Shown here: piece after piece, positions 1,554-59,775 of the stretch
How the letters are laid out: every line of letters begins with the position of its first letter
Position numbering within the stretch: position 1 is the stretch's first letter
Sequence record: PQ462667.1
DNA length: 64,000 nucleotides
Reading direction: 5' to 3' (one strand)
From: Escherichia phage HMD-P3
The notes under the pieces: model-generated
What the model saw: only the letters and a program-made list of their open reading frames with translations
What the model was told of the DNA's origin: nothing
Databases searched by the model: none
Made by a program: the position numbers and the translations under genes

Positions 1554-1631
1554 TGGTGGCTCCCCGAGGATTCGAACCTACGTACCTTCCGGTTATGAGC
1601 CGGGTGCTCATACCATATGAGCTTGAGAACC
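1554..1631 (-). tRNA. tRNA-Met/Ile2-like (anticodon CAT)
   Basis: Sense GGTTCTC...CCGG-CTCATAA-CCGG...GGTTCGAATCC...GGGAGCC-A-CCA; anticodon loop CUCAUAA; acceptor pairs with two G-U wobbles; T-stem has one bulge. Confidence 0.7.
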
Positions 1632-2532: not shown

Positions 2533-3525
2533 ATGACAGAAGAAGTAGCTAAGAGTCCTGAGACCGTCGCTAGCGTTGCAGCAGAACTGCACCGTCACGA
2601 GGAATCAGATAAGAAAAAGTGGGAGAAGGTCAGAGCCTACGAAGAAAAACATCGTGAACACGATGAAGATGATGAAGAAGATGACGATGATGAACATTGT
2701 CATAAATATGGAAAACATAAAATGCAAGAACCAGTAAACGTATTCACTAGTGGCTTCCCTGGCCTAATGGGCGGTTACCCAGCAAACGCAGGTGCTTTTG
2801 GTGGTGAAGGTATGGGTCTATTCGGAGCTATCCTAATCGGTGCTCTATTAACAGGCGGATTCGGTGGTTTCGGTGGATTCGGTGGACGTGGTGTAGTTGG
2901 TGATGGTAGCGCAGTTGATGCAGTGCTTCAGAATCAAGATACCGCTAGTATTCTAGCAGCTATTAACACTACTCGTACAGAAGCTAATCAGGGTACTGGA
3001 GCTGTTTTAAGCGCAGTTAATAATGGTTTTAGCCAGACATCCCAAAACCAGAGCCGTGATACTCAGTCTGTACTAACTACGATCTATGGTACGGGTGCTA
3101 ATCTGTCTAATCAAATCTGCCAGGAAACTCGCAACGTTATTCAGGGTCAGTTCGATCTTTCTCGCCAGATTGATCAATCTTTCGCAGCTAACCAGATAGC
3201 TCGTGCACAAGATAAGTTTGATTCTGCACAGATCGCTTTCCAGCAGACTTTACAAACTAATAACCAGTTTGCAGCTGTTCAGGCTCAGATGTGTGCTAAC
3301 CAGAACTCTCTGGAACGTCAGATCGCTGAATGTTGCTGTGAACTTCAGACTGCGATCGCTGGTGTAACTACTGCACGTATCCAGGACGAGTTAGACGCAT
3401 GTCGCCTACGTGAAGCAATCGCTGCGGGTAGTGGTGCTAACGGTCAGGTAATTAATCAAATCGCTTTAAGTCTTGGTGCTATCACTCAGACTCTGGCTGG
3501 TCTGCAGGCTAAACTGCCGGCTTAA
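2533..3525 (+). CDS. low-complexity protein: acidic/His-rich N-terminus, glycine-zipper hydrophobic segment, Q/N/A-rich C-terminal domain (about 330 aa from the RBS-supported start)
   Basis: Strong RBS (AGGAGG) 7 nt before ATG at 2533 (the track ORF begins at 2473 without an RBS); segment GLFGAILIGALLTGGFGGFGGFGGRG; CCC and further Cys in the C-terminal part. Confidence 0.55.
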   Translation: MTEEVAKSPETVASVAAELHRHEESDKKKWEKVRAYEEKHREHDEDDEEDDDDEHCHKYGKHKMQEPVNVFTSGFPGLMGGYPANAGAFGGEGMGLFGAILIGALLTGGFGGFGGFGGRGVVGDGSAVDAVLQNQDTASILAAINTTRTEANQGTGAVLSAVNNGFSQTSQNQSRDTQSVLTTIYGTGANLSNQICQETRNVIQGQFDLSRQIDQSFAANQIARAQDKFDSAQIAFQQTLQTNNQFAAVQAQMCANQNSLERQIAECCCELQTAIAGVTTARIQDELDACRLREAIAAGSGANGQVINQIALSLGAITQTLAGLQAKLPA

Positions 3526-4283: not shown

Positions 4284-5231
4284 TTACTTGTTACGCATAT
4301 CCATGATCATTTGACCATCGTAGCCAGTACCTACCACAGTCTGAGGCACACCACCTTGATACTTCTGAGCACGAATCATTTCAACTTCCAGTTGCTTCCA
4401 GCGAATCATCTCAGGAGTAATGGTACGTTGCAATGCGGCGTTAGCTTCAGCTTCTTTTTTAGCTGCGTACAGTTTAGCATCTGCGTCACGTTCATTAGCA
4501 ATAGCTTGGTTGTTGCGAGCTTCACGATCTGCTTCTGCTTGTTTAACTTTTTGCTGTGCTTCCTGTTCAACGCGGGCAAGTTCAGCTTTCGCAGCGTTAA
4601 CTTGCTCTTCACGAACTTTGGTATTCTGTACCTGTTCCATGATTACCGGTGGCAAAGTAATATCCTGAAGAAACACCTGCTTAACTGTGTAACCATATGG
4701 GCGTGCATACTCTTCAACTTCCTGTTGAATTGCAGTTTGCAATTGAGCCTGAATTTTAGCATCAAACAAATCTTGTGCTTTAGGTACAGACTTACCAAAC
4801 TCACGAATAGTAGACAGTAATTTTTCAGTTACATATTTGTCTAATGCTTGATCCTGGGTACCTGCATTAATACGGTTAATCGGTGCCTTAGAACCATCAA
4901 ACTGCAACATAACAGTCAGGTCAACAGTGGATTTAAACTTATCCTGACTAGGAACCTGAAGTTTATCTAATTTTAGAGCAATATCTTTAGTACTAAAAGT
5001 ATCGAAAGAAGCAAAAGGATTTACAATATGAAAGCCGGGTAATACTGGGCTAGGGTCAACTTTACCCAGGAAAGTCTGGGTTTTAACAGTACCGTCTTGG
5101 ACAACAGTATAAGAGTTAAGAGCCAGAACTAAACCTACCAAACCAACTGCAGCACCAATACCCCAACGTTTGATATTACGCATTAATTTTTGCTCATAAG
5201 TCAGTTCTTTAGTGTTTTTAGTAGCAAACAT
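4284..5231 (-). CDS. SPFH/band-7 (prohibitin/HflK/C-like) membrane protein
   Basis: N-terminal TM helix (WGIGAAVGLVGLVLAL), central SPFH-like region, C-terminal charged coiled coil (EQVNAAKAELARVEQEAQQKVKQAEADREARN...). Confidence 0.65.
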   Translation of the reverse strand: MFATKNTKELTYEQKLMRNIKRWGIGAAVGLVGLVLALNSYTVVQDGTVKTQTFLGKVDPSPVLPGFHIVNPFASFDTFSTKDIALKLDKLQVPSQDKFKSTVDLTVMLQFDGSKAPINRINAGTQDQALDKYVTEKLLSTIREFGKSVPKAQDLFDAKIQAQLQTAIQQEVEEYARPYGYTVKQVFLQDITLPPVIMEQVQNTKVREEQVNAAKAELARVEQEAQQKVKQAEADREARNNQAIANERDADAKLYAAKKEAEANAALQRTITPEMIRWKQLEVEMIRAQKYQGGVPQTVVGTGYDGQMIMDMRNK

Positions 5232-5265
5232 ATATTTCCTTTGTTTTAGTTACAGTTAATAAAAT

Positions 5266-5340
5266 TGGCCGAGGTGACAGGATTCGAACCTGCATAAAGG
5301 AATTTAGAAGACTCCTGCCTCTCCCTTAGACTACACCTCG
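5266..5340 (-). tRNA. tRNA-Arg (anticodon TCT)
   Basis: Sense CGAGGTG...GGAGT-CTTCTAA-ATTCC...GCAGGTTCGAATCCTGT-CACCTCG-G-CCA; anticodon loop CUUCUAA. Confidence 0.8.
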
Positions 5341-5832
5341 TTTAAGTATTTTTAAGAACTCTCGTAAAAACTCTTAAAAATACAGACGATACCGGGAGAG
5401 TCATAAGTCTCACTCATTAAGTATTTCAAGACAAAATACGGTAACGTCTACTATTTTCCAGTTTAAGTCAGGGTGACTTAGTGGTTATGTCCTGCGGTAT
5501 ATTGAGGACTCGGTTAGGCTCGGGGTCATGACTTCCCGCCTTTTGCTGCTACTCAACAGGAGTTATCGCGAATTACCTGTGCTATTGTGCACCATTAGTG
5601 ACATCTCTCATGCCAGCATTTCCCACTTTGTGGATAGCTTGAAAAACTACTCCGATATGGAGAAAGAACTTCACTATCCTAGAATACCTTCTAAAGTTCT
5701 TCTTTAGCCTGGACATAGTTAAATCGTAATAAAACTATTCAGCAGACTGGTTGGTTAGTCTGGAACCAACTACCGCGTGGTTTAGGCAGTGCGCAACTAA
5801 CCTCGGAAGCTTTTACTTTAAAAGCATCAGTT

Positions 5833-5914
5833 ATCCAGTTCTTACCGACCATAGGATTCGAACCTACATCTTCCACCAGTTACGGCTTGATAATACCAAT
5901 TATACTAGGACGGC
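5833..5914 (-). tRNA. tRNA-like element (perfect T-arm, imperfect acceptor, anticodon arm not resolved)
   Basis: Sense contains GTAGGTTCGAATCCTAT and acceptor-like GCCGTCC/GGTCGGT with one mismatch; no clean cloverleaf by eye. Could be a divergent or degenerate tRNA. Confidence 0.4.
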
Positions 5915-6129
5915 AGTGTTACTACATAAGTGATTTCCACACCCCACTATTTATAAATTAGAGAAGAGTTTAGGGGAGAGGTTTCAGACGCCTCATTTTA
6001 CACGTTCTAGCCACTAACCGGGATTGCCGCCCCCTGTGTACTAGTTTTACAACTAACCCACCGACTCTATTCAATGCGCTTCGGTTGGGATTATGCATTC
6101 AGCGTAATCGGCTCGCTGTTCCCTAATTT

Positions 6130-6178
6130 ATGAATATATTATACAGAATTTAAAGGCATTTAGCAAATAAATTTTTAA
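6130..6178 (-). promoter_or_regulatory. T5-type early promoter (minus strand) upstream of the tRNA-containing transcription unit
   Basis: Reverse complement aaaatttatttgctaaatgcctttaaattctgtataatatattcataaatt closely resembles T5 PN25 (-35 TTGCTa, -10 TATAAT, A/T-rich upstream). Confidence 0.6.
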
Positions 6179-6618
6179 TTAAATTCGCCAGCAATCTGAG
6201 CAGCAGTACCACCATCATAACGCCCAGGAAATTCTTCCTTAATCGCTTTCATCAGCATACCTTTTGTAATTCCAGGGTTTAGCTTAACTAATTCTGCAAA
6301 GTATTTACGAATCTCAGTATCAGATAACTGAGGAGGCAGATACTCCTGCAACCACTTATTTAGAATGTATTCATACTGAGCAGACTGCAAGCTATAGCTA
6401 TCAAGATCTTGACCATGAAGTTTAGCTTTCATCTGGTTAATGCTTTTTAGTTGAGCTTTGAGATAAGACACAAATTGTTCAGAAGTGATGAAATCTTTAT
6501 CAATACGCTGAAGATCCCCGATTATGGTCTGATAACTTTTAGCGACTTCTTTATCAGAACCATTAAACTTAGAATCCTGCAAAGCTCTACGCAAAACATC
6601 TAAAATATTCTCTTCCAT
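6175..6618 (-). CDS. GatB/YqeY-domain protein
   Basis: C-terminal YLPPQLSDTEIRKYFAELVKLNPGITKGMLMKAIKEEFPGRYDGGTAAQIAGEF matches the GatB/YqeY pattern. Confidence 0.6.
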   Translation of the reverse strand: MEENILDVLRRALQDSKFNGSDKEVAKSYQTIIGDLQRIDKDFITSEQFVSYLKAQLKSINQMKAKLHGQDLDSYSLQSAQYEYILNKWLQEYLPPQLSDTEIRKYFAELVKLNPGITKGMLMKAIKEEFPGRYDGGTAAQIAGEFN

Positions 6619-6788
6619 TATTTCATTCCTAGCGCTTGGTTAAAAGATTGTTCTGTCATAACTGCTGAGACTTTGGCGAAATCAAACTTTTTAGGGTTCG
6701 TAGTGATTTCAGCAACGTTAGAAGTTTTAACAGTTTTCGTAGTACGAATACCGCGAGTGTTAACACCAATAATTACAACTGATTTCAT
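6618..6788 (-). CDS. possible small ORF (56 aa), translationally coupled to the GatB/YqeY gene
   Basis: ATG preceded by GAGAGG; stop overlaps the downstream start (ATGAAATAATG); below the 60-aa track cutoff. Confidence 0.3.
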   Translation of the reverse strand: MKSVVIIGVNTRGIRTTKTVKTSNVAEITTNPKKFDFAKVSAVMTEQSFNQALGMK

Positions 6789-6807
6789 ACTTCGCTTCCT
6801 CTCATTA

Positions 6808-6862
6808 ATTTATGGAAGTATTATACGGAAATTTAAGTAGTTAAGCAAGTAAATTTTTAAGT
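6808..6862 (-). promoter_or_regulatory. T5-type early promoter (minus strand)
   Basis: Reverse complement cttaaaaatttacttgcttaactacttaaatttccgtataatacttccataa. Confidence 0.55.
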
Positions 6863-7324
6863 TTTAGTGACAACAGGTTTATAGAATGTATGTCCCTTAA
6901 TTTTAGTTGTTTTCTTAAATTTCTTTGTCCAGTAAGGTTTATCTTTACCACTATGGAAGTATAGTGCTCCATGTGTAGGATCTTGTGGTAAATCAACGTA
7001 GTATATCACTCTAGCTAAATTCTTAGCGGTTTGCCAAGCCTCATCAGTTTTATCAACTTTTGGTCTCTTAGATACCCAAGAGAACTGGTTAGACTGATAT
7101 ACTACTTTACAGTAGGAATCTGGGAATTTACCGGAGTTTACACGGTTTTTAGTAACATGTGCAATCGCCGTCATTCCCTTTATGCCCTCACCACGACTTT
7201 CGAAATAGATATTTTTAGCAATGCAATCTATTTCTTTTGCATCGTGCGATGCCTGACTACTAAAGCTGAAGGTAAGGGCAGCTACTAAAAGCAAAGCTGC
7301 CTTCATTCTTTTTACTCCTGCCAA
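6857..7324 (-). CDS. secreted cell-wall hydrolase, SleB-like
   Basis: N-terminal signal peptide (MKAALLLVAALTFSFSSQA); core IAKNIYFESRGEGIKGMTAIAHVTKNRV...VVYQSNQFSW matches the SleB-type cell-wall hydrolase signature. Confidence 0.65.
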   Translation of the reverse strand: MAGVKRMKAALLLVAALTFSFSSQASHDAKEIDCIAKNIYFESRGEGIKGMTAIAHVTKNRVNSGKFPDSYCKVVYQSNQFSWVSKRPKVDKTDEAWQTAKNLARVIYYVDLPQDPTHGALYFHSGKDKPYWTKKFKKTTKIKGHTFYKPVVTKT

Positions 7325-7629
7325 TCATATTCAACACGATTGGGATTTTCTTTATACCCTAAGTCAAGCAAATCATTACGCATATTTTGCTTAGCTACTG
7401 GGTTCGAGGTTACTAGTACCACTTTCTTTGGTCTCTGCCCAAATTCTAATAGTAAACGAAGAATTTGATAACCTTCCATACCATCTACAGCCAAGTCATT
7501 ATCCATATAAACGAAATGGCCTGTGGTATCAGTTTTATTCAGAAACTCTACAGCGGCTTCTGGGGTTCGAATGATAATGTCCATTCCGTGAAGATTACGC
7601 ACATCATCAATCAAAATATGAAAAGTCAT
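7312..7629 (-). CDS. hypothetical protein, possibly receiver (REC)-like fold (105 aa)
   Basis: Acidic motifs in REC-like spacing (ILIDDVR, VYMDNDL, VLVTSNP); weak, by eye only. Confidence 0.35.
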   Translation of the reverse strand: MTFHILIDDVRNLHGMDIIIRTPEAAVEFLNKTDTTGHFVYMDNDLAVDGMEGYQILRLLLEFGQRPKKVVLVTSNPVAKQNMRNDLLDLGYKENPNRVEYDWQE

Positions 7630-7647
7630 AATAGCCTCGTTTCATCA

Positions 7648-7705
7648 ATTTAAAAATATATTATACATATAATTTAGTAGATTAGCAAATACATTTTTAA
7701 ATTGT
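7648..7705 (-). promoter_or_regulatory. T5-type early promoter (minus strand)
   Basis: Reverse complement aaaaatgtatttgctaatctactaaattatatgtataatatattttt. Confidence 0.55.
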
Positions 7706-8071
7706 GAAACTAGTAAACCGATAAACAGCCTAGAGGCGCCACAGGCCATACCTTATGAGCCATGTACCTTTGATCTAGGGTTTTAATCATCAACGAATAC
7801 TTTGCATCTTTTAGCTTTAGAAGTTTAGAAGTTTGAGTTCTTTAAACTTTTCAGCTTTCATACTTAAATGTTGATCTTTGAAGTTGTGTCGGTAATATCA
7901 ACGACGCTTTGTTTTTACGTGTCAGCTTAAAAGGCTGGTGTAATAAACATAATCTCCAATAGATTATACTTTATAGTATGGTCAGCGGTCCTATTTAACC
8001 TCGTATTTCAACCGCTGCTGCGAGGTAAGATGCTTGGGCTTTCGTCTACCGATTTACTAGCTTTTAAATTA

Positions 8072-8710
8072 TTACTCTACTTCAATGAAGGTAGAGGCGT
8101 TAGACTCGGACAGAACAAAGTCAACATTTGTTGCAAAGTCCTGATATTCCTCGTCATGCTGCTTAATCAGCTTTTCCAGTTCCAGCGGATCAATCAAGAA
8201 TGGAGTATTCTTGAGTTCCAGCAGGTTGAGCTGCATTTTAACTTCATCTTCGGAAGTTTTCTTATCGCGAGTAGCCATGCTATCCTGCAAACGCTCATAT
8301 TTAGCATCAAACTGTGCTTTCTGCGTATTAAACTTAACCGTAGCGGCATGGAACTGCTTACGCATGTTAGCAAGCAGTTGAGCTTTAAGTTCCATAGAAC
8401 GCTTAGCTTCAATTGCTTCCGCAACAGTCATCTTACGAGAGCCAATCTCAACGATTGTTTCTGCATTGCTCTTAATCAGAGCAGATTTGATACTATCACG
8501 CTTAGACATCATATCCAGCAGAGACTGGAAATCAGTCTTAATACGAGTAGACAGATCGGCTACTTCGATTGCAGCGCCAACTACAACCTGGTTTTTATCC
8601 TTACCTTCACCAACAGCGATCAGAAGCTGCTGTTCAGTAGCTTTACGGATTTTAGCTTCCAGAGATTTGATAGTTGCCAGAGCACGAGTTTTAGAAATAC
8701 GAGTAGTCAT
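8072..8710 (-). CDS. hypothetical protein (212 aa)
   Basis: ORF with RBS; overlapping plus-strand ORFs are shadow frames; followed by a roughly 440-bp non-coding tail. Confidence 0.55.
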   Translation of the reverse strand: MTTRISKTRALATIKSLEAKIRKATEQQLLIAVGEGKDKNQVVVGAAIEVADLSTRIKTDFQSLLDMMSKRDSIKSALIKSNAETIVEIGSRKMTVAEAIEAKRSMELKAQLLANMRKQFHAATVKFNTQKAQFDAKYERLQDSMATRDKKTSEDEVKMQLNLLELKNTPFLIDPLELEKLIKQHDEEYQDFATNVDFVLSESNASTFIEVE

Positions 8711-8763
8711 TATTTGCTTCCTTATATGAAGTTTGAGATTTGAATTTGTTTGAATTTGGTCTA

Positions 8764-8946
8764 TTACAGACCAATTGCCAGCAGAGTGCGCAGAACAGTA
8801 TCGTTACTGTTATCAATTTTAGGATTAGCACGATTTAGTAGATTAAAGATTTTCTGGATACCTGATTGACGTTCAGCCATACGACGGATACCCAGATTAC
8901 GAGTAGCTTTCTTACCATTTTTACGAACATTTTTAGATACTGGCAT
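8764..8946 (-). CDS. small basic protein (60 aa)
   Basis: Lys/Arg-rich N-terminus; T5-type promoter immediately upstream (8962-9018). Confidence 0.4.
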   Translation of the reverse strand: MPVSKNVRKNGKKATRNLGIRRMAERQSGIQKIFNLLNRANPKIDNSNDTVLRTLLAIGL

Positions 8947-9016
8947 ATTTGTTTTCCTTTTATTGTTTTCTCAAATTTATGAATATATTATACAGAATTT
9001 TGGAGCCGGAAGCAAA

Positions 9017-9718
9017 TCAAATTTTCATTTTTTCGATCATAGCTGCAACACAATAGCTCTCAACTAAGGCATCAAATGCAGGATCATGCTTAACCGGATA
9101 AATCCCATAACGAATAGTGTCCATCTTCTCCATTTTAGCTATTGCCCAGCTAATACCTTCGGTCTCTAGAGCTTTATAACTGTATCCAGCTTGCATCCAG
9201 AGATTACGAAGAGATCGAACATTGCCCAAATTCCAGAATTTCCACGGAACTACTTCTTCATTGGTTCCAGCATGGAACGTGTTTGCAGAGTAGATAGTCA
9301 TATCAAACTCTGGGCCATTGCCATAATACAAAGCATTTTCGCCTAGAGCCAACTCCATAATATTTTTAGCCATAGAGAAGGCAGCATAGTTTGAGCCAAG
9401 TTTATTAGTGCAATGATGTTTACCATTTTGGAAGGCAATCAGTTTTGGATTACGCTCGTTCATAGCTTCCATAATGTGGATAGCAGACGGGCTATTTTTA
9501 GCTTGATCCATCCAGAATGCTAGAGTAGATGCTGTAACTTTGGCACCAGAATTAAGTTGATCTTGCACATCCAAAGTAACAAATACTAGATCAGGGTCTT
9601 TATCAATCCCATGCATAGCTACAAAAGCGAAAGAAGGCATTGCGATATGAGTAGTACCACAATCTCCTGGAGTTCCTAGAGATTCAATATCTAGCATACC
9701 AAATGGTTTTACTTTCAT
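9017..9718 (-). CDS. putative DnaQ-like (DEDDh) 3'-5' exonuclease
   Basis: N-terminal Exo I-like GMLDIESLGT and C-terminal Exo III-like HDPAFDAL (H-x4-D-A); middle motif not clearly seen. Confidence 0.45.
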   Translation of the reverse strand: MKVKPFGMLDIESLGTPGDCGTTHIAMPSFAFVAMHGIDKDPDLVFVTLDVQDQLNSGAKVTASTLAFWMDQAKNSPSAIHIMEAMNERNPKLIAFQNGKHHCTNKLGSNYAAFSMAKNIMELALGENALYYGNGPEFDMTIYSANTFHAGTNEEVVPWKFWNLGNVRSLRNLWMQAGYSYKALETEGISWAIAKMEKMDTIRYGIYPVKHDPAFDALVESYCVAAMIEKMKI

Positions 9719-56112: not shown

Positions 56113-59100
56113 TTAAGAATTTCCTAATGTTTTCAGACTAGCACCGTTCTCATTCAGAGCTAATTCTACTGCGTCTCTCAGAGCACCACTATTACTAGAA
56201 GCAAACTCTCTAAAACTTGCAGCATCCATAGCACTAATATTCAGGATGATAGGTCTTCCTGAAGTTGAGTTAGATGAAGTTTTTAGCTCATCATTAGGTG
56301 TAGATTTCATAGGAACCATAGGGGTAACTACTTCTGTACCATGTTCACCCATTTGATAACTAACCCCAGGGTACATATTACCACCCTCAGCACGAGGAAC
56401 GAAAGAATTAGCACCACCTATACCTTTATCGCCTCTGATATAAGATAATTCACCAGCATTAGCAGACATAGACACATCTATATTCTTCTGACGCTCTCCT
56501 AAGGTTAGGTAACTAGTTGTATTTGCTCCAGAATCCACAGAGGGTATAGAGGATGCACCAGAAGCAGCGGCTAAGGATAGTGCGCCTGCAGCAGCCGCAG
56601 TGGCCATCATCGTTAACCCTAATGGTAAGAACGGACGGGTAGCTGCAGCGTTCATCATAGCTACGGCTGTAGATATGATTATTTGCTTTTTAGCTTCTCG
56701 CTGTTGTATCTTAGTCTTTTCTGCCTCCAACTTCTTGATTTTAGCTTTAGATTCCTCAGACTTACCATCACGCTTCTGTTCTGCTGCAATAGCCTGGTCT
56801 ATTGCACTTATTTGCTGGTTAGCGGAATATGCCATCATCTGTCCCACCATCTGCATACCTGCAGATATGGTTGTTATACTATCCAAGCTATCTTGTGCAT
56901 TAGCCACCACTGCTAAGGAGAAATTACCTATGCTGTTAGCCAATGCTGTAGAAGCAGAATCCACTTCTGACATCTTAGCTATAGCCTGATCATACATAGA
57001 CATTCTATTCTCAAAATCAGCAAACTCCTTATCAGCACCAGATAATCCATAGGTAGGAGTGAAGGTACCCCCTAGTGAGGATACGACTGATTTGTACTTT
57101 TGATCCTCTCTTTGCTTTTTAAGCTGTTCTAAGGCTGCTGAAGTTTTATAAATCTCATTACGATATTTAATTTCTTCTTCAGTATTATCTTTAGACAGCT
57201 CCAGCTGCTGCTGCAGAATAGATAACCTTTCAGTGAGAATCTGTGACTGACCAGTGACATTTCTCTGCGTTTGGCTAACCTCTAAGGCATCCATAAGGGC
57301 GGATACATGAGTAGCAGTAGCTTGCTTTTCTGCTTCCCACTTCTCTCTCTCTAGCTGTGCCTGTGCACGTCTAGATTGTTCCAGTTTAACCTGGCTATCA
57401 GCCTGTTTAGCGTATAGCTTAGTTTTTTTCCCCTCTAACTCTAGTTCAAGATCTAACTGTGCTAGACGATACTGAGTATCAGTCATAGTACGGTTATTTA
57501 AAAGGGCTATTTCTTCGTCAATGCCAAGAATTTTATCTGTTTGATCCTTAACCTTTTTAGCGGTTTCAAATCCTTGAGCTTTAGTGTTGAGAATTTCCGT
57601 TTCTATTTTAGCTACTTGTTTTAATGCTTCAGGATCATTTGGATTTATAGCTAATAGTGTTTTTGCTGCACTAAGCTGTTCCTGTTGTTGACGCAGTAAT
57701 ACTTCCCTAGCTGCTGCCTCTGCCTTAGCCTTGTCCTTAGTCTGAGCGTAAACCTCATCCTTACGTTTAGCTACCTCTAGTGCATTCTGCTCAGTTTTAT
57801 CCATAGCAGTTACATATTCTGCTAGGCCTTTCTGAGCATTCTTAATTTGATCTAGGCTTGTGAAACCTAGATTTAGATCCTTAACTAGAGTATCTGCACT
57901 TTGCCCAGTTATTTTAGAAGTATCTTCTATTGCCTTTACAACACTGTTTAGGTCACTAGAGGCTTTCTTAGCGTTAGTAATACTACTTGCCGCCATTTTT
58001 ATGTTATTTGCAGTATCACTAGAACTTTTCTTCAGGAAGTCAAAGTTCTTCTGTATCTCTGCGGCAGCTTTGAGGTTCTTAGGATCAATTTCGAATACTC
58101 CTTTTTCTCCCGGGATAGCAGTGGCAGCATACTTCATTTTAGCTCCTAACTGCTCAGCCAGATTGCCATTACGTAACAGAGCTTCCCCGGTATCCTGTAC
58201 CGCCTGTCTTAGAACCTTCTCGGTTTTGGCTCGTTCTTCTATTTCTTTGTTTTGACGAGCCAACTCATTAGTAAGCTGTACTACTAACAGATTACTCTCA
58301 TCTGTAGGAAGACCACCAAAAGCAGTCAATGCATTGACAAAAGGAGCAGTAAATGATTGTTTTGCTTTAATATCATCCAATTGCTGTTTAATCTCTTGAG
58401 CTTTCTTAATACGTTCTTCACTTTCTTTAAGATATGTATCTAGGTCTTCTTGAGCCCCTACAGCATTCCCTATTAAAGCTGTAACGTTTTCAGATGGAGT
58501 AATTTTAGCGGATGCACTACGTGCCATTGCAGAAACTCTTGATTGAGAAGCCTTAGTTTGGTATAAGAAAGTATTAAGTGTATCCATAACAGGATTTAAG
58601 TATGTAGCAGCACTTTGTTGTAAACTTCTTAGAGCTGAGTTAGCATTGGCAGCAAATTGTTCCCAAGAGGTTGCCTTAAGAGCATCATCCAGGTATCCAA
58701 ATCTACGAGTAGACTCTGCAATAACCTCATTTGCATATGCTTGTTGTCTCTGGTAGGTAGTCAGGCTATCTACAGTATATTTAATGCCGGTACTAGTAGC
58801 ATTTAACTGTTTAACATAATTTGCATACGCATCGTTAAGACGAATAGTAACACCAAGTTCATCCAGAAGTTCAATTTCTTGTTTTGATACACCCTTAATT
58901 ACACGGTTAAGTGCATCAGTCATATCAACACCAAGAACAGCAGCAGCACGACGTGCTACTAAACCAAACTGCTCCAATTGTTCACTGTCAAATCCATAAG
59001 CGGAAGCAGTAGATGCTTGGCGCATAGCTTCTTCAAAGGATATAGCACCATTAGTAGCGTTTTGTAGTGATAAAGCTAGTGTCTGTACAGGTGTACCTGT

Positions 59101-59775
59101 TATGGTACCAACAATAGTGCCAAACTGCTCTAACCTGTTTAGCTGATCACCTACTTTTAGGTTCTCAAAAGCAGTCTGTAGGACGTATACGTTAGAAGCA
59201 AAGGCTGCGTATAGTATAGGTAGACGACCACCGATCTTAGCCATTGCCGCAAAATCACGAGTAGCTCCGCGTGCTGAACCGGAAGTATTACCTAAAGCTC
59301 TAGAAGCCCTACCAGCAGCACCAGCAGTATCATTAAAACCTCTAGATGTACCACCTAAAGCTCTATTAGTATCGTATAGCCTATCTTGAACTTTCTCTGT
59401 TGCAGCTGCAACATCATTACCCATTGCTTTAACAGATCTAGAGACTCCATTAAACCCAACCTCTAGTTTATCCGCTACTTCGATCATTGCAATAGCTAGA
59501 TCATCTAACTTAACACCAATACTATCAATGGATTTAGTGATACCAGCCATACCCCTACTAGCTTGCATTTTAGTAAGACTTTTTGCTGCTCTATCCGCTG
59601 CCCTCTCAATGGAGTAAAGGGTTTTGGGCATTTTACCTAACTGCTCGTTTGTCAGTTCGGAAGCAGCAGCAGCGTTTTCTAACGCATCAGATACGTTTTC
59701 AATAGACTTTGCAGTACGAGTTGCCCCCTTCTGCTTAACGTCTATTAGTAATTCTCGTATTAGCTTATCAGTCAT
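56113..59775 (-). CDS. tail tape measure protein (T5 pb2-like, 1220 aa)
   Basis: Very long Ala/Gln/Lys/Glu-rich coiled-coil protein with C-terminal hydrophobic and Gly-rich segments; located between the chaperone pair and Dit. Confidence 0.85.
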   Translation of the reverse strand: MTDKLIRELLIDVKQKGATRTAKSIENVSDALENAAAASELTNEQLGKMPKTLYSIERAADRAAKSLTKMQASRGMAGITKSIDSIGVKLDDLAIAMIEVADKLEVGFNGVSRSVKAMGNDVAAATEKVQDRLYDTNRALGGTSRGFNDTAGAAGRASRALGNTSGSARGATRDFAAMAKIGGRLPILYAAFASNVYVLQTAFENLKVGDQLNRLEQFGTIVGTITGTPVQTLALSLQNATNGAISFEEAMRQASTASAYGFDSEQLEQFGLVARRAAAVLGVDMTDALNRVIKGVSKQEIELLDELGVTIRLNDAYANYVKQLNATSTGIKYTVDSLTTYQRQQAYANEVIAESTRRFGYLDDALKATSWEQFAANANSALRSLQQSAATYLNPVMDTLNTFLYQTKASQSRVSAMARSASAKITPSENVTALIGNAVGAQEDLDTYLKESEERIKKAQEIKQQLDDIKAKQSFTAPFVNALTAFGGLPTDESNLLVVQLTNELARQNKEIEERAKTEKVLRQAVQDTGEALLRNGNLAEQLGAKMKYAATAIPGEKGVFEIDPKNLKAAAEIQKNFDFLKKSSSDTANNIKMAASSITNAKKASSDLNSVVKAIEDTSKITGQSADTLVKDLNLGFTSLDQIKNAQKGLAEYVTAMDKTEQNALEVAKRKDEVYAQTKDKAKAEAAAREVLLRQQQEQLSAAKTLLAINPNDPEALKQVAKIETEILNTKAQGFETAKKVKDQTDKILGIDEEIALLNNRTMTDTQYRLAQLDLELELEGKKTKLYAKQADSQVKLEQSRRAQAQLEREKWEAEKQATATHVSALMDALEVSQTQRNVTGQSQILTERLSILQQQLELSKDNTEEEIKYRNEIYKTSAALEQLKKQREDQKYKSVVSSLGGTFTPTYGLSGADKEFADFENRMSMYDQAIAKMSEVDSASTALANSIGNFSLAVVANAQDSLDSITTISAGMQMVGQMMAYSANQQISAIDQAIAAEQKRDGKSEESKAKIKKLEAEKTKIQQREAKKQIIISTAVAMMNAAATRPFLPLGLTMMATAAAAGALSLAAASGASSIPSVDSGANTTSYLTLGERQKNIDVSMSANAGELSYIRGDKGIGGANSFVPRAEGGNMYPGVSYQMGEHGTEVVTPMVPMKSTPNDELKTSSNSTSGRPIILNISAMDAASFREFASSNSGALRDAVELALNENGASLKTLGNS

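Follow-up and report, generated by a model that had tools for sequence, protein, structure and literature searches.

Sec-exported and SAR endolysins of Gram-negative phages include P1 Lyz, R21 of phage 21, and gp61 of N4. Bacteriophage T5 carries a lysis pair, lys (T5.040) and holin (T5.041), and EndoT5 is a biochemically characterised M15 L-alanoyl-D-glutamate peptidase. A SleB-type gene of a T5-like phage has been placed in the early-gene region (PMC3326045). In Salmonella T5-like phages, the holin-adjacent endolysins belong to the M15C peptidases, and the SleB domain is found in those "far from holin" (Guzel et al. 2024; PMC11180984). Hundreds of T5-like annotations and these two papers have already made known the gene, its domain, and its location apart from the holin/endolysin cassette. 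In the literature searched, the hydrolase protein and T5.083 are mentioned at annotation level only, with no enzymatic, localisation, or timing data.

The locus described here matches the T5 reference throughout and carries little weight as a discovery. Its interest is biological: nearly all close T5 relatives keep T5.083, under strong purifying selection, and an exported SleB-type enzyme would be at work in a spore-less setting, the hosts of the orthologue-bearing phages being non-sporulating Enterobacteria.

We analyzed a stretch of 64,000 nucleotides (the window) from a T5-like phage (Tequintavirus), which is collinear with Salmonella phage Spc35 at 96-98% nucleotide identity. The 3.5 kb surrounding the hydrolase gene match 449 phage records, with nucleotide identity reaching about 98.7% in T5-like phages of Salmonella and Escherichia. 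The encoded protein shares 145 of 149 residues (97%) with T5.083 (YP_006911) and is 99-100% identical to proteins of many deposited Tequintavirus and T5-like genomes, where the orthologues are labeled "SleB putative cell wall hydrolase," "spore cortex-lytic enzyme precursor," "cell wall hydrolase," or "endolysin." Judged by sequence, the gene and T5.083 of bacteriophage T5 are orthologues. Its features are these:

6857..7306, minus strand: coding sequence of the SleB-catalytic-domain (Hydrolase_2) protein, T5.083 orthologue, 149 aa including the signal peptide (open reading frame, ATG with Shine-Dalgarno sequence, PF07486).
7315..7319, minus strand: Shine-Dalgarno sequence AGGAG of the hydrolase gene, inside the last codons of the upstream gene and 8 nt upstream of the ATG (read from the sequence).
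7250..7306, minus strand: predicted signal peptide, aa 1-19, MKAALLLVAALTFSFSSQA, with predicted signal peptidase I cleavage after Ala19 (n/h/c layout, hydropathy, conservation).
6860..7249, minus strand: predicted mature domain, aa 20-149, about 14.9 kDa, pI about 9.7, with Glu36, Arg55, Tyr116, His139, and Cys28/Cys66 (alignment, fold).

The maximal open reading frame on the minus strand, 6857..7324, comprises 155 codons and opens with a TTG at 7324; the ATG at 7306 lies six codons inside it. The first-pass annotation gave the gene this full extent. The reading frame is real, and its start should be moved: the ATG at 7306 is likely the true initiation codon rather than the TTG, because AGGAG stands 8 nt upstream of it and because every annotated homologue has 149 aa (450 nt). 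Codon by codon, the gene differs from that of T5 by 14 synonymous and 4 non-synonymous changes (dN/dS 0.067), as is expected of a real protein-coding gene under purifying selection. Retention was counted as records with a protein of at least 80% identity against records with a DNA polymerase of at least 90%: among close T5 relatives the hydrolase is kept in about 435 records versus about 441, and among Klebsiella T5-like phages in about 85 versus about 104. Vibrio T5-like phages yield 357 DNA polymerase matches and are absent from the ten commonest organisms of the hydrolase search; from that absence, most of them appear to be without a detectable homologue.

The hydrolase matches Pfam PF07486 (Hydrolase_2) with an E-value of 2.2e-25 and 89.7 bits (cut-off 27) over profile positions 1-100 of 100, an assignment well clear of chance, and the Pfam search returned no further domain. 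The SleB-type core that had been read from the letters is confirmed; all three of its motifs, NIYFESRGE, HVTKNRV, and QSNQFSW, are present. A match to PHROG 938 (E 5.5e-30) carries the label "endolysin." The only solved relatives found by sequence are the SleB catalytic-domain chains 4F55/4FET (E 2.6e-8). The same chains are the only significant PDB matches in a Foldseek search (E about 2e-5, TM 0.62-0.79, rmsd 2.4-2.9 A) with an AlphaFold2 model built on 30 homologues (pLDDT 91.2). As modeled, the fold is that of the SleB catalytic domain.

Residue conservation was read from 86 aligned homologues, the most distant at about 30% identity. Catalytic Glu36 (in YFESRGE) is kept in all 85 homologues aligned at that position, and the groove residues R55 and H139 are kept in 86/86 and 84/84; Q74 is invariant and Y116 nearly so. 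The groove of Bacillus subtilis SleB is lined by E203, R222, Y278, and H301 (PMC13556211), and the spacing is the same in both proteins: 19 residues for E36-R55 and E203/R222, and 23 for Y116-H139 and Y278/H301. On this alignment the active site looks intact. The designation "SleB orthologue," or SleB proper, was considered and rejected: the NCBIfam SleB equivalog TIGR02869 scores 50.3 bits against a cut-off of 236.5 and is matched at positions 79-201 of 201 only (the C-terminal 123), the N-terminal part being missing. These profile matches indicate that the hydrolase is a stand-alone catalytic domain without the SleB N-terminal part. Pfam and PHROG searches found no YpeB/PepSY protein among the neighbors of the gene.

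The N-terminus of the protein reads MK, AALLLVAALTFSF, and SSQA in succession, with the predicted cut between SSQA and SH. A rule-based call (n/h/c layout, hydropathy) agrees with the signal peptide proposed in the first-pass annotation: there is a positive n-region, a hydrophobic core of 13-15 residues, and a c-region with Ser at -3 and Ala at -1. The core is too short for a membrane helix: Kyte-Doolittle hydropathy stays below 1.6 in every 19-residue window. Small residues at -3 and -1, the three regions, and the lack of a lipobox are the marks of a Sec (signal peptidase I) secretory protein. A lipoprotein was considered and discarded; the lipobox cysteine is absent, and the signal carries no cysteine at all. 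Among the 86 homologues, the N-terminal hydrophobic segment is at threshold in 65 and fainter yet visible in most others, and three have lost it through N-terminal truncation. The aligned -1 column holds Ala in 48 of the 86, and -3 is mostly Ser, Ala, or Val. With regard to the features of SAR endolysins, the core spans 13-15 residues, Ala, Ser, and Thr abound in the segment, and no pinholin lies nearby. Taken together, the N-terminal features favor a cleavable signal peptide over a SAR anchor, and we infer, with good support, that the precursor is exported by Sec and cleaved.

The mature domain carries a pair of cysteines. Of the 86 homologues, 81 have both Cys28 and Cys66, and in the three that have no Cys28 (rV5, SPLA5a, and PAK_P1) Cys66 is replaced as well. 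This joint presence or absence fits a periplasmic disulfide, which the two residues probably form. In the locus of the Seunavirus SPLA5a, a Salmonella phage, the deposited "endolysin" CDS, in the region 2989-3519, starts at an internal Met (position 3136 of the locus) and so leaves out the signal peptide together with the first helix; starting in frame further upstream yields MKIKAIILATACAFSLTTTPVLA...

The transcription context of the gene is defined by three further features:

7660..7688, minus strand: T5-type early sigma-70 promoter, TTGCTA-17-TATAAT, for a two-gene unit (consensus scan, 10/12 matches).
7312..7629, minus strand: T5.084 orthologue, 105 aa, with a cREC_REC receiver-like domain (PF20274 E 3.8e-15, phrog_1479).
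6820..6848, minus strand: next early promoter, TTGCTT-17-TATAAT, homologue of T5 "P-D/E 33" (comparison with the annotated T5 promoter).

The first of these promoters aligns with the annotated promoter upstream of T5.084 (NC_005859) and carries the A-rich upstream block typical of T5 early promoters. The stop codon of the T5.084 orthologue (7312-7314) is 5 nt ahead of the hydrolase ATG; the T5.084-T5.083 order is identical in T5, T5_ev219, and Spc35, and the two genes are probably translationally coupled. The second promoter begins 9 nt past the hydrolase stop codon, and no minus-strand terminator-like site was found in 5200-9100, so none separates the two units. The surrounding minus-strand block holds genes for RNase H, thymidylate synthase, DHFR, and ribonucleotide reductase, together with tRNA genes. 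The hydrolase gene is the second of this two-gene unit, and homology and its published placement support its membership of the early class. The Bas33 RNA-seq data set was set aside, as it covers one time point only and gives no product names. The cREC_REC domain of T5.084 is a "cyclic-phosphate processing receiver" domain, and among the phages compared its pairing with the hydrolase is seen in T5-like phages only; the genes upstream of the hydrolase homologues in rV5, PAK_P1, SPLA5a, and metagenomic phages have no Pfam match.

Several neighboring features of the window deserve a record of their own. Upstream of the cREC_REC gene is an intergenic gap of about 440 nt (7630-8071), for which the T5 annotation shows a promoter at the downstream end only. 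Beyond it, at 8072-8710 (minus strand), lies the 212-aa early-region orthologue of T5.085, to which phrog_1491 gives the label "tail fiber protein"; Pfam finds no domain in it, the structural genes are distant, and the label is probably a propagated misannotation. Two conserved early genes lie on the other side of the hydrolase gene, also on the minus strand: an SPFH/Band-7 membrane protein (4284-5231; T5.080, annotated "lipoprotein") and a YqeY/GatB-like protein that adjoins the tRNA cluster (6175-6618; T5.081, annotated "tRNA amidotransferase"). Between tRNA-Arg and the YqeY-like gene, 834 nt of the minus strand (5341-6174) have no credible ORF; this stretch shares about 91% identity with the T5 "rnaX, stable RNA with unknown functions," and a conserved early promoter precedes it at 6166-6138. 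A weak tRNA-like Rfam match (33.7 bits) lies inside the rnaX region at 5843-5914, where ARAGORN makes no call. Finally, a fourth tRNA found by Rfam (40.3 bits) at 1557-1631 (minus strand) adjoins tRNA-Ser and was missed by ARAGORN.

The position of the lysis genes was taken from Spc35, in which the holin SPC35_0040 and the M15 endolysin SPC35_0039 occupy 19.85-20.9 kb and the SleB-type gene lies at 40.5 kb, on the same strand at a distance of about 20 kb. The first position of the window corresponds to about 34.2 kb in Spc35, and the holin/M15 endolysin cassette falls outside the window. In keeping with this map, tblastn searches of the window with the Spc35 holin, the M15 endolysin, and the two annotated spanins gave no match, and when all ORFs in 1-13 kb were scanned for hydropathy, no real gene near the hydrolase locus showed a holin-like membrane segment. 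The hydrolase has a signal peptide, and the window holds no homologue of a holin, endolysin, or spanin; in both respects it stands apart from a canonical holin-dependent endolysin. Two statements of the first-pass annotation hold up here: that no holin-like neighbor is evident, and that the hydrolase is not the holin-paired main enzyme, a position held in Spc35 and T5 by the M15 peptidase EndoT5. A third, which sets transcription with early genes against transcription with a holin/endolysin pair, is half right. The early promoter is there; the contrast is false, because the T5 pair itself lies in the early region, on the same strand (PMC3326045; Spc35 map).

We consider it moderately probable that the product is an early, Sec-exported, processed, and disulfide-stabilized periplasmic enzyme that acts on glycan strands as an accessory to EndoT5. 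The host RNA polymerase would transcribe the T5.083 orthologue from the T5 early promoter, in a bicistron with the cREC_REC-domain gene. The 149-aa precursor would then be exported by Sec and cut by signal peptidase I after Ala19, giving a basic, single-domain periplasmic enzyme of about 15 kDa, probably stabilized by the Cys28-Cys66 disulfide. By analogy with SleB, the enzyme would most likely be a lytic transglycosylase that cuts peptidoglycan in its glycan strands. From the outer side of the membrane, it would act on the sacculus, weakening or remodeling it, as a complement to EndoT5, whose targets are the peptide stems. An accessory role in lysis or remodeling, as the first-pass annotation suggested, is a reasonable proposal; the idea is already in print (PMC11180984) and is not new.

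Two considerations bear on this mechanism. The first is the substrate. Characterised SleB/CwlJ enzymes need muramic-delta-lactam, and the walls of E. coli and Salmonella are without it (PMC13556211); activity of the hydrolase on ordinary peptidoglycan is therefore an assumption. Single-domain Hydrolase_2 proteins of beetles inhibit vegetative B. subtilis (PMC7807722), so the domain need not require the muramic lactam of the spore cortex. The second is timing: a soluble muralytic enzyme made early might lyse cells prematurely, and some restraint or low activity must therefore be assumed. In the supplements of a CRISPRi-ART screen, T5.083 knock-down is scored "Not Fit," that is, without fitness cost. 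The screen says little about dispensability, because lys, nrdA, and one structural gene received the same score.

Relatives of the hydrolase in other phages bring in a different reading: an early periplasmic role outside lysis, such as superinfection exclusion via peptidoglycan, a change to the envelope or division, or the countering of an envelope-linked defense. The remoter signal-bearing homologues, 34-48% identical, are all on phage-like contigs of 20-100 kb, among genes for Thy1, Metallophos, RNase H, UvdE, or ribonucleotide reductase. In a number of unrelated phages, all large and virulent, signal-bearing Hydrolase_2 genes have early or nucleotide-metabolism genes, rather than lysis genes, as neighbors: they adjoin rIIA/rIIB in rV5 and Seunavirus SPLA5a, DNA ligase and dCMP deaminase in PAK_P1, and Thy1 and Metallophos in uncultured phages of 85-95 kb. 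The gene is also strongly conserved in Markadamsvirinae, though it seems to be dispensable under laboratory conditions. No direct evidence, however, speaks for any of these functions; gene position is a weak guide, given that the T5 holin and endolysin are early-region genes too; and the apparent absence of a homologue from most Vibrio T5-like phages also counts against the reading. We regard this reading as unlikely.

The homologues also lend something to the view that the hydrolase is a second, holin-independent endolysin, which would be delivered by Sec, build up in the periplasm, and lyse the cell alone as a redundant or back-up enzyme or as a timer, in the way of secreted or SAR endolysins of other phages. 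PHROG 938 and many GenBank records say "endolysin." In Chaseviridae phage MLP1, the holin is directly followed by a homologue of 36% identity that has the same Cys pair and a signal-like N-terminus; in the PAK_P1 homologue, the N-terminal segment is longer and resembles an anchor. Since the MLP1 gene is holin-adjacent and the genes elsewhere are orphans, the family serves both as main endolysin and as orphan exported enzyme. T5-like phages, however, already own a holin-adjacent, biochemically characterised endolysin, and the 13-15-residue core followed by a conserved Ala-X-Ala-type site is unlike a SAR anchor. Furthermore, a self-sufficient lysin expressed early would shorten the latent period, and the knock-down result, for the little it weighs, points the same way. 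A lysin of this kind at the T5.083 locus seems to us quite improbable.

A hydrolase that is virion-associated and helps phage DNA across the wall, the "aiding DNA entry" of the first-pass annotation, would surprise us greatly: peptidoglycan hydrolases are common on phage tails and the neighborhood has a "tail fiber protein" among its PHROG labels, but the cleavable Sec signal takes the protein out of the cytoplasm, the site of virion assembly, and routes it to the periplasm of the infected cell rather than into virions; the gene belongs to the early region, at a distance from the structural genes (45-64 kb); first-step injection brings in the terminal 9% of the genome, to which the gene does not belong, so that it cannot be expressed until its own DNA has entered; and a homologue of the tape-measure protein pb2 is encoded in the window at 56113-59775. 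In T5, pb2 is said to supply the muralytic activity at entry, as Boulanger et al. reportedly described in 2008.

The accessory periplasmic enzyme is the reading that we carry forward. If the hydrolase cuts ordinary Gram-negative peptidoglycan from the periplasm, it would offer a small, basic, naturally exported muralytic domain of possible enzybiotic use, and such cleavage would also clarify the organization of T5 lysis. A broader and tentative suggestion, which we think doubtful, is that signal-bearing Hydrolase_2 enzymes form a recurrent and distinct early periplasmic class in large virulent Gram-negative phages, acting before lysis and not as spare endolysins. Such a class could take in T5-like, rV5-like, PAK_P1-like, and uncultured phages of about 90 kb, with the genes among early or nucleotide-metabolism genes. 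Its roles might include, for example, superinfection exclusion by peptidoglycan remodeling, or a holin-independent upper limit on the latent period.

In terms of known systems, the hydrolase can be set beside four groups of proteins. With P1 Lyz, R21, and N4 gp61 it would share a muralytic domain, delivery to the periplasm by host Sec, and freedom from a holin pore. Unlike them, it belongs to another catalytic family, has a short, cleavable-looking signal instead of a releasable membrane anchor, lacks an adjacent pinholin, and has no signal cysteine for control by disulfide caging.

With Bacillus SleB/CwlJ (4F55, 4FET, PF07486) the likeness lies in the fold of the catalytic domain and in the Glu/Arg/Tyr/His groove. 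The phage protein differs in being without the SleB N-terminal part and without a YpeB-type partner nearby. The Cys pair is found only in the phage protein, whereas SleB has Leu and Ser at these positions, and the host wall of the phage is without muramic-delta-lactam, the feature that SleB and CwlJ recognize.

The distant phage homologues rV5 gp002, PAK_P1 gp159c, and MLP1 gp26 resemble the hydrolase in having a single Hydrolase_2 domain behind a signal-like or anchor-like segment, and the first two also in the position of their genes among early-type genes. They differ in that identity is just 35-41%, with the cysteines of rV5 and PAK_P1 at other positions, and in that the gene for MLP1 gp26 is holin-adjacent and likely encodes the main endolysin of MLP1.

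The closest counterparts are T5.083 and its Tequintavirus and Epseptimavirus orthologues, among them SPC35_0073 of Spc35 and ORF81 of AKFV33. From T5.083 itself the hydrolase differs by four conservative substitutions and otherwise by nothing of substance. The likeness extends through the sequence, the flanking early promoters, and the order of the genes, which in T5 and in the window alike is T5.085, T5.084, T5.083, T5.082, T5.081, rnaX, and tRNA-Arg.
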